Below are positions 15,401 through 18,400 of a stretch of 64,000 bases of DNA, in pieces. The number at the start of each line of letters is the position of its first letter. Positions within the stretch are counted from its first letter, which is position 1. Location of the stretch: NCBI RefSeq assembly GCF_057098645.1, contig NZ_CM169472.1, one strand, 5' to 3'. The position numbers were made by a program.

Positions 15401-18400
15401 CATCCCTGCGGTCATCGCGGCGGGTATTCTCTCCACTTACTATTTTGGCATTACTGGCACCTTTTGGGCTGTCACGGGTGAATTTACCCGTTGGGGCGGC
15501 CAGCTCCTGCAACTGTTCGGCGTCCATGCTGAAGAGTGGGGTTACTTTAAAATTATCCATCTGGAAGGATCGCCATTAACCCGCATCGACGGGATGATGA
15601 TCCTCGGTATGTTTGGCGGCTGCTTTGCCGCAGCGCTGTGGGCCAACAATGTCAAACTGCGAATGCCGCGCAGCCGTATCCGCATTATGCAGGCCATCAT
15701 TGGCGGCATTATCGCCGGTTTTGGCGCGCGTCTGGCAATGGGCTGTAACCTGGCGGCGTTCTTTACCGGTATTCCTCAGTTCTCGCTGCATGCCTGGTTC
15801 TTTGCCATCGCCACTGCCATTGGTTCATGGTTTGGCGCGCGCTTTACCCTGCTGCCCATCTTCCGTATTCCCGTGAAAATGCAGAAAGTTTCTGCCGCCT
15901 CACCGCTGACGCAAAAACCGGATCAGGCGCGGCGTCGTTTTCGTCTCGGGATGCTGGTCTTTTTCGGCATGCTGGGCTGGGCGCTGCTCACAGCGATGAA
16001 CCAACCCAAACTGGGGCTGGCAATGCTGTTTGGCGTCGGCTTTGGTTTACTGATTGAACGTGCGCAAATCTGCTTTACTTCGGCGTTCCGCGATATGTGG
16101 ATCACCGGACGTACCCATATGGCGAAAGCAATCATTATTGGTATGGCGGTGAGTGCCATCGGGATCTTCAGTTACGTACAGTTAGGCGTTGAACCCAAAA
16201 TCATGTGGGCGGGACCAAACGCGGTAATTGGTGGTTTACTGTTTGGTTTTGGCATCGTGCTGGCTGGCGGCTGCGAAACCGGCTGGATGTACCGCGCGGT
16301 AGAAGGCCAGGTGCACTACTGGTGGGTCGGTCTGGGCAATGTGATCGGCTCAACGATTCTGGCGTATTACTGGGATGATTTCGCTCCGGCGCTGGCCACC
16401 GACTGGGACAAAATCAACCTGCTGAAAACCTTTGGTCCGATGGGTGGCCTGCTGGTGACATATTTGCTGTTGTTTGCTGCGCTGATGTTGATTATCGGCT
16501 GGGAAAAACGCTTCTTCCGCCGTGCGGCACCGCAGACTGCTAAGGAGATCGCATGAAAAATATCGTTCCTGATTACCGCCTTGATATGGTGGGTGAACCC
16601 TGCCCTTATCCGGCAGTCGCAACCCTTGAGGCGATGCCGCAGTTAAAAAAAGGGGAAATCCTGGAAGTGGTGAGCGACTGTCCGCAGTCGATCAATAATA
16701 TTCCACTGGATGCGCGTAATCACGGCTATACGGTGCTGGATATTCAGCAAGACGGGCCGACCATTCGTTATTTAATTCAGAAGTAATCCCTCATTCCCGC
16801 TGTGGCCCACAGCGGGAATATCGTTGCCTCTGTACCACATAGATTTTACCCGCCCCCTCTCCTATTCTTTTCAGTGTGCTCTCAGGAGGTTTCTATGTGT
16901 GGACGCTTTGCCCAATCCCAAACGCGTGAAGATTACCTTGCGCTTCTCGCGGAAGATATTGAACGCGATATTCCCTATGATCCCGAACCCATTGGCAGAT
17001 ACAACGTCGCGCCGGGAACCAAAGTCCTTCTGCTCAGTGAACGTGACGAACACCTTCATTTGGATCCGGTTTTCTGGGGATATGCTCCCGGATGGTGGGA
17101 TAAACCGCCGCTGATTAACGCCCGCGTAGAAACTGCCGCAACCAGTCGCATGTTTAAGCCGCTCTGGCAACATGGTCGGGCAATCTGTTTTGCCGATGGC
17201 TGGTTTGAGTGGAAAAAAGAAGGCGACAAAAAGCAGCCTTATTTTATCTATCGTGCTGATGGACAACCTGTTTTTATGGCAGCGATAGGCAGCACACCGT
17301 TCGAGCGCGGTGACGAAGCCGAAGGATTTTTGATTGTCACTGCAGCAGCAGACCAGGGTCTGGTAGATATTCATGACCGCCGCCCGCTGGTTCTGTCGCC
17401 AGAAGTTGCGCGGGAATGGATGCGGCAAGATATTGGCGGTAAAGAAGCCTCAGAAATCGCTACCAGTGGTTGTGTGCCAGCAAACCAGTTCACCTGGCAC
17501 CCGGTATCGCGCGCGGTGGGTAATGTTAAAAACCAGGGCGCAGCGTTAATTCAACCTGTTTGATAAGCCTGGAGATTATTGATCAACAATACTGCGTCAT
17601 AAGAAATCTCTATTAGACAAAGATTTCATTACCTGTTGGCATATTGCAAAAATAACACCAATACGGAATCGTCATGTTCACGATTTAAACAGATGATCTC
17701 ACCCATCCAGCAGTGCAAGCATTAGTGGCTTACCATATTTCCGGCATGCTGCAGCAGTCTCCCCCCGAAAGCAGTCATGCTTTAGATGTGCAAAAATTAC
17801 GTAACCCGACAGTGACATTCTGGTCAGTATGGGAAGGCGAACAACTCGCAGGAATTGGTGCGCTGAAGTTGCTGGATGATAAACATGGCGAGCTGAAATC
17901 AATGCGTACCGCGCCAAATTATTTACGTCGTGGTGTCGCCAGTCTGATTTTACGCCACATTTTGCAGGTCGCCCATGACAGATGCCTTCATCGCCTGAGC
18001 TTAGAAACGGGTACACAGGCTGGATTTACGGCCTGCCATCAACTTTATTTGAAACATGGATTCGTTGATTGCGAACCGTTTGCTGATTATCGATTTGATC
18101 CACACAGTCGATTTTTATCATTGACGCTATGCGAAAATCATGAATTGCCATGAGCCAGACGCAGCACATTCTTGCATTCGACGTGCTGCGCCTTTATTTA
18201 TCACCAGCAGGAAACGCCTTGTCCATAGACGCCACTTCTACATGCGCCACAAGAAACCTCTATTCCAGTGACACAATTACGCCTAATTAATTACATATAA
18301 TATTTAATTATGAGCTCCTCACCATCTATTACATACTTTTTAACCATGTCGGAATATTTATCATAATCATCGGGGTTCGTAACAATATATTTTCGCTGCG

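Follow-up and report, generated by a model that had tools for sequence, protein, structure and literature searches.

What ends the messenger RNA of the yedE-yedF selenium-metabolism operon of Escherichia coli, and does the palindrome that follows yedF belong to this operon or to yedK, the next gene downstream? The locus lies in 64,000 nucleotides (nt) of contig NZ_CM169472.1 from RefSeq assembly GCF_057098645.1, referred to below as the window and numbered from its first letter. The window is E. coli DNA, and over the 501 nt around the palindrome it shows 100% identity to O145 strain RM9872 and 97-99% identity to nearly every complete E. coli genome. A preliminary description, made from the sequence alone, had noted a near-perfect 13-bp inverted repeat between yedF and yedK that forms a strong hairpin immediately after the yedF stop codon with no T-run behind it. 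It had offered a factor-dependent terminator, an RNA stability element and a protein-binding site as possible roles. We found that the hairpin is real, non-random and present in a single copy, and that it belongs to the 3' end of yedF. With moderate confidence, we favour the explanation that it is the 3'-terminal protective stem-loop of a Rho-terminated or read-through yedE-yedF transcript.

The inverted repeat is perfect rather than near-perfect. Its two arms, ATTCCCGCTGTGG (16793-16805) and CCACAGCGGGAAT (16807-16819), are 13 nt each, 100% complementary and separated by a 1-nt spacer, and the coordinates first noted for it were right to within 1 nt. The stem begins 7 nt past the TAA stop codon of yedF (16784-16786). 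In RNA a 1-nt loop is too small for the innermost G-C to close, which leaves a hairpin of 12 bp, 8 of them G-C, with a 3-nt GCC loop. The fold has an energy of -23.2 kcal/mol in a 56-nt context (z = -5.0; none of 200 shuffles equally stable), and the stem-loop of the window allele by itself reaches -19.4 kcal/mol. The complementary strand folds with comparable stability. No longer perfect, close-spaced inverted repeat occurs in the window, where we counted two repeats with arms of at least 12 nt and a loop of at most 8 nt compared with a mean of 0.05 in 60 dinucleotide shuffles. The chance expectation of the complete hairpin pattern was 0.00. A search of 16500-17100 on both strands with Rfam covariance models (cmscan, E up to 10) returned no match.

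The absence of a T-run was also borne out. A terminator scan found no T-run terminator at the hairpin, and the tail that follows the stem, ATCGTTGC, has T at 3 of 8 bases. Its TransTermHP-style tail score is -2.27 (-1.97 for the K-12 tail), compared with -5.9 for a canonical U-tract and -1.7 for arbitrary sequence. The stem is directly preceded by TCCCTC, so there is neither an A-tract before it nor a U-tract after it.

Published RNA 3'-end data from strain MG1655 show where the transcript stops. In RNAtag-seq data from cells grown in LB, yedF has a 3' terminus on the + strand at 2009744-2009752 with a dominant position at 2009750 (Nat Commun 2023, PMC10687069). A second dataset re-analysed in the same study, which from its row density may be the term-seq data of Dar & Sorek, places it at 2009743-2009752, with a dominant position at 2009746, a signal of 0.96 and p values from 1e-73 to 1e-87 in three replicates. 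The signal is defined there as L/(L+D), where L is the number of 3' ends at the site and D the number in the next 67 nt. Few 3' ends fall in the 67 nt downstream of the peak (R 0.63-0.96). The study classes this terminus as 'Primary', meaning that yedF is the last gene in every EcoCyc transcription unit that contains it. It also prints the same fold for the K-12 allele, UUCCCGCUGUG ACC CACAGCGGGAA, at -18.9 kcal/mol. In K-12 the stem is formed by 2009720-2009730 paired with 2009734-2009744. With an offset of 1,992,926 between MG1655 and window coordinates, the dominant ends at 2009746 and 2009750 correspond to window positions 16820 and 16824. The steady-state RNA of K-12 therefore ends 2 and 6 nt past the stem. 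These are the transcript 3' ends by which the preliminary description had proposed to check its RNA-level roles, and they support a factor-dependent terminator or a stability element. Our literature search found no paper that treats this hairpin by name, and yedE, yedF and yedK are absent from the SMRT-Cappable-seq supplements. The RNA 3' end and the fold are already contained in a published table, and the hairpin is an ordinary, known element.

Conservation across the Enterobacteriaceae was the other check proposed, and here too the hairpin held up. We scanned one genome per species for YedF and obtained 80 loci; the hairpin survey took in 81 sequences. The 77-residue YedF protein is 94-100% identical across the scan, which includes Escherichia, Citrobacter, Salmonella, Klebsiella, Enterobacter and even Morganella, a degree of conservation that is unusually high for a protein whose function is poorly defined. 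A hairpin of -12 kcal/mol or lower that begins no more than 25 nt from the yedF stop codon was found in 74 of the 81 sequences, with a median start of 6 nt and a median energy of -18.3 kcal/mol. Dinucleotide shuffles of these sequences met the same threshold in 31% of cases, with a median of -9.5 kcal/mol. A stem-loop of some kind thus follows yedF in about 90% of the Enterobacteriaceae sampled, whichever gene lies downstream.

These hairpins fall into three groups. The first consists of homologous hairpins of the form YTCCCGY...RCGGGAR in Escherichia, several Citrobacter, and Salmonella arizonae and diarizonae. In the second, true repetitive extragenic palindromic (REP) elements, GCCGGATG...TTATCCGGC, occupy the same position after yedF in other Citrobacter. 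The third comprises unrelated hairpins in other genera; about 22 of the 80 have a good T-tail. We aligned 16 homologous hairpins of the first group without gaps and examined covariation between the arms. The partners were paired in 92.7% of cells, compared with 38-60% when the partners were slid. Six of the 12 pairs change on both sides, for example from C-G in cryptic Escherichia to U-A in E. coli, and the covariation score of 0.342, compared with 0.182 in shuffles, was reached by none of 500 shuffles. The TCCCG...CGGGA core is unchanged across Escherichia, Citrobacter and Salmonella. Compensatory substitutions have preserved the pairing across three genera. Arms that covary to keep pairing point to a folded nucleic acid as the conserved feature, not to a site recognised by a protein, and the protein-binding role suggested initially finds no support.

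Within E. coli the locus is nearly universal. A 47-nt query covering the hairpin matched 5377 of 5426 complete genomes at 93% identity or higher. It is a single-copy locus, as the second match in each genome is the palindrome hitting its own reverse strand. Of 8 diverse E. coli strains, 7 share all 11 core stem pairs, and strain F200 has one change, of the top pair. The variable sites of the hairpin are the loop (G or A at 16805) and the outermost pair. Position 16819 is C in K-12 and in 6 of 7 other E. coli sampled, giving an 11-bp stem there, so the thirteenth pair of the window repeat (A16793-T16819) is a minority allele. In the spacer downstream of the hairpin, about 15 of 61 columns vary among the eight strains.

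To describe the repeat as lying between yedF and yedK is accurate for its location but slightly misleading as to which gene owns it: the hairpin is an element of the yedF 3' end that predates yedK at this position. Among the loci of the YedF scan, yedK lies downstream of yedF only in E. coli and two Franconibacter species. Blastn of related loci showed that the homology of four cryptic Escherichia species to the window stops at 16817, at the 3' edge of the stem, and that the homology of Salmonella and Citrobacter restarts at 19776-19778, at the 3' end of fliE. The intervening block of yedK, yedL and espR3 is therefore lineage-specific DNA placed past an older hairpin. In Citrobacter braakii and its relatives, yedF and fliE are convergent and 49-58 nt apart, with the gap filled by the homologous hairpin or a REP element. 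Across species the distance between yedF and fliE varies between 49 nt and over 2.5 kb, marking a hypervariable spot. In Salmonella arizonae, Salmonella diarizonae and one Citrobacter (L012, L013 and L015), the homologous stem has TTTTT behind it. As judged from these comparisons, the hairpin probably descends from an ordinary intrinsic terminator, whose tail gave way to other sequence in E. coli as the yedK-yedL-espR3 block arrived. Neither the hairpin nor its flank is directly repeated at the far end of this block, and a simple model in which the hairpin is an att-like integration site is not supported, since it has no duplicate there. One cryptic Escherichia (L007) carries yedL and lacks yedK.

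We propose the following mechanism for the protective stem-loop. The repeat would be transcribed as the final element of the yedE-yedF messenger RNA, where its G+C-rich hairpin of 12 bp (11 bp in K-12) would set a stable 3' end. RNA polymerase would mostly pass the hairpin, because the U-tract is missing and a C-rich, G-poor untranslated stretch stands in its place. This stretch has 24 C and 12 G over 16820-16894, placing it in the top 4% of 75-nt windows, and 16 C and 3 G over 16830-16869. Termination would occur slightly further on, probably by Rho loading at the C-rich tract, or else by weak hairpin-induced release. The 3'-to-5' exonucleases polynucleotide phosphorylase (PNPase) and RNase II would then trim the tail to the base of the stem, which would block them and so protect the yedEF message.

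A class of this kind has been described. According to Dar & Sorek 2018 (PMC6061677), Rho-dependent transcripts, defined by a read-through of more than 30% with bicyclomycin or in rho mutants, have precise steady-state 3' ends just past stable stem-loops. These stem-loops lack U-tracts, are followed by an excess of C over G, and shield the RNA from PNPase and RNase II. The yedF hairpin resembles this class in standing directly upstream of a precise RNA 3' end, in having neither a U-tract after it nor an A-tract before it, in a moderate excess of C over G downstream, and in its host operon, which appears to be weakly expressed judging from the low read-start averages in the PMC10687069 data. We place it provisionally in the class from its sequence, its fold and the mapped ends, with Rho dependence and trimming as predictions. 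It differs in its short C-rich tract, which is limited by the yedK start 75 nt further on. Adams 2021 also lists a Rho termination region within yedE at MG1655 2008838 (window position about 15912; Rho score 3.47, p 1.7e-5), about 0.9 kb upstream of the hairpin. This suggests premature Rho-dependent termination inside the operon in LB.

Several points weigh against this explanation. The bias of C over G is moderate, and it covers about 50 nt before the ribosome-binding site of yedK, which is short for a Rho utilization (rut) site. The mapped end at +6, beside UU, is consistent with weak intrinsic termination as well. The spacer between yedF and yedK has no recognisable sigma-70 promoter, leaving room for substantial read-through into yedK. 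The mapped ends were obtained in K-12, and its hairpin and the window allele differ at two positions. Finally, the supplementary text of Adams 2021, in the part available, names no Term-seq 3' end for yedF or yedK, which may reflect low expression or truncation of that text.

The hairpin can also be compared with other known systems. It shares with canonical intrinsic terminators a G+C-rich stem of 11-12 bp, within the 5-14 bp or so usual for them, a 3-nt loop and a position just past the last gene of an operon. It differs from them in that the E. coli copy lacks a U-tract, taken as at least 5 U in about 8 nt, and in that its strongest end is at +2. Like the REP elements and bacterial interspersed mosaic elements (BIMEs) that stabilise messenger RNA 3' ends, it is an extragenic palindrome at the end of an operon that can block 3' exonucleases. 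Unlike them, it has no REP consensus (the GCCGGATG-type motif) and occurs once per genome; we rejected membership in a REP-like repeat family on this single copy in the window and in the 5426 E. coli genomes. Bidirectional terminators between convergent genes have been described in a SEnd-seq study cited in PMC10687069. The hairpin of the Citrobacter braakii type is comparable to these, being the sole element between the convergent yedF and fliE. In E. coli, by contrast, the neighbour yedK is co-directional, which leaves a role on the + strand only, and there is no A/T run on the flanks.

The sequence between the hairpin and yedK bears on what happens to transcripts that pass the stem. A promoter scan of the yedF-yedK spacer detected no sigma-70-like promoter that could serve yedK. 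At 13 nt ahead of the yedK Shine-Dalgarno sequence, K-12 has the hexamer TATGAT and the window strain has TGTGCT, a poorer -10 candidate. In the fold of 16770-16930 the hairpin leaves the yedK Shine-Dalgarno sequence free. The minimum-free-energy and centroid folds of this region also contain a helix in which CCACAUAGA (16835-16843) pairs with UCUAUGUGG (16892-16900), masking the yedK start codon (16895-16897); neither arm varies among the 8 E. coli strains. As a predicted structure, this helix could occlude the start of yedK in read-through transcripts.

The main rival to the protective stem-loop is a weak or atypical intrinsic terminator, in which the hairpin and its imperfect tail AUAUCGUU (CAUCGUU in K-12) would release the polymerase a short way past the stem, perhaps aided by NusA or NusG. 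The geometry and energy of the stem-loop are typical of terminator hairpins, one K-12 end lies 6 nt past the stem beside UU, and the local read-through statistic given above is low. The true T-run on the homologous stems of Salmonella and one Citrobacter also indicates that the ancestor was probably intrinsic. Intrinsic release typically occurs 7-9 nt past the stem. The strongest mapped end, at +2, is nearer than this and resembles the product of exonuclease trimming; the tail has no U-tract and scores close to arbitrary sequence, and the consensus scan was empty. We therefore regard this explanation as unlikely. It is also conceivable that the hairpin is intercistronic, lying within a longer yedE-yedF-yedK transcript. 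Most polymerases would pass it, and it would act as a partial attenuator and, after cleavage downstream, as a barrier to 3' exonucleases. It would set unequal levels of the yedEF and yedK messages, as REP hairpins do in malEFG, and a ribosome that terminates 6 nt upstream could influence how it folds. In favour of this, yedF and yedK run in the same direction with 108 nt between them, the stretch from the hairpin to yedK gave no sigma-70-like promoter (the -10 candidate of the window being poorer than that of K-12), Franconibacter has a hairpin of different sequence in the same spacer, and the helix able to cover the yedK AUG would form only in read-through RNA. On the other hand, the end is classed as 'Primary', few read starts compared with the peak fall in the next 67 nt (R up to 0.96), the hairpin is equally conserved where yedK is absent, and we found no direct evidence of a transcript across the yedF-yedK junction. 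An intercistronic role is accordingly quite unlikely. Another reading, in which the hairpin is a tunable gate rather than a plain transcript end and yedK, a DNA-damage or abasic-site protein, is expressed largely by read-through from yedEF, is a long shot. Ribosomes terminating 6 nt upstream would then unfold the 5' arm, access of Rho to the C-rich spacer would provide a second control, and the helix over the yedK start could further limit translation of the read-through RNA.

An element acting at the level of DNA, whether as an operator bound by a dimeric regulator of yedK or yedEF or as a target or hot spot of the recombination that brought variable DNA in between yedF and fliE, appears very improbable. 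The palindrome is perfect and its core is invariant in three genera, as an operator might be. The precise break in homology to the four cryptic Escherichia at the 3' edge of the stem, the variable gap between yedF and fliE, and the intG remnant of an integrase that K-12 carries at the far end of the block are all compatible with recombination. The covariation at 6 of 12 positions, however, preserves pairing and not sequence. The palindrome is located 3' of yedF, it precedes the yedK start by about 75 nt, and it has no recognisable promoter on which to act. There is no direct repeat at the other end of the block, and breakpoints beside terminators are expected anyway, as insertions are tolerated there. 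The LexA box has the consensus CTGT-N8-ACAG. The palindrome has the spacing CTGT-N5-ACAG, which does not fit, and a LexA- or CRP-type operator was rejected on this spacing, on the lack of a detected promoter and on the covariation of the arms. We also considered an element resembling a selenocysteine insertion sequence (SECIS), in view of the selenium operon, and rejected it, as the stop codon of yedF is UAA and not UGA.

The significance of the hairpin lies mainly in annotation, as it fixes where the transcript of the yedEF selenium-metabolism operon has its 3' boundary. It places yedK and its neighbours as a later insertion just beyond an old terminator hairpin. The locus would provide an example of an intrinsic terminator that lost its U-tract through a downstream insertion and persisted as a 3' stem-loop without one. 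It also cautions against taking the palindrome as a regulatory operator of yedK. How yedK is transcribed, with no promoter visible, is a point of some interest. The features of the locus are collected in Table 1.

Table 1 Features around the yedF hairpin, in window coordinates.
Feature	Position	Strand	Description and evidence
yedF coding sequence	16553..16786	+	Last gene of the yedE-yedF selenium-metabolism operon; open reading frame (ORF) list, RefSeq annotation of the identical O145 RM9872 region
yedF-yedK spacer	16787-16894	not assigned	108 nt; exact match to the range in the preliminary description
Stem-loop	16793..16819	+	5' arm 16793-16804, GCC loop 16805-16807, 3' arm 16808-16819; repeat search, folding, covariation
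Equivalent of the K-12 yedF 'Primary' RNA 3' terminus	16817..16826	+	MG1655 2009743-2009752; PMC10687069 Supplementary Data 2, 3, 4
C-rich, G-poor untranslated tract	16830..16875	+	Candidate rut-like Rho-loading region, inferred from base composition
yedK Shine-Dalgarno sequence AGGAGG	16884..16889	+	Sequence; fold of 16770-16930
yedK	16895..17563	+	SRAP/HMCES-family protein; first gene of the lineage-specific block beginning at the hairpin 3' edge
Variable block: yedK, yedL, espR3/yedN pseudogene	16820..19775	not assigned	Between the hairpin and the fliE 3' end; blastn of related loci

The ORF list also offered an upstream extension of yedK from a GTG at 16802, within the hairpin. SRAP proteins start with Met-Cys. 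The yedK frame does so at 16895, and the extension was therefore dismissed as an artefact of ORF listing. By annotation, yedK is frameshifted in E. coli strain 219 (L083) and truncated with an internal stop in strain AVS0467 (L088), so the gene is dispensable in some lineages. In the two Franconibacter species (L042 and L044, at about 2734-2817), yedK lies 79-83 nt past yedF. A hairpin unrelated in sequence, GGCCCTGC...GCAGGGCC, takes the corresponding position in the spacer there, and yedK has a TATACT hexamer upstream. The layout of yedF, hairpin and yedK is thus present in two distant genera.

Elsewhere in the window we found four further perfect, close-spaced inverted repeats with arms of 10-12 nt, at 31676-31701, 32307-32331, 35226-35248 and 42244-42275. 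These are probably terminators or REP elements; the repeat at 35226 holds a REP-like GCCGGATG motif.

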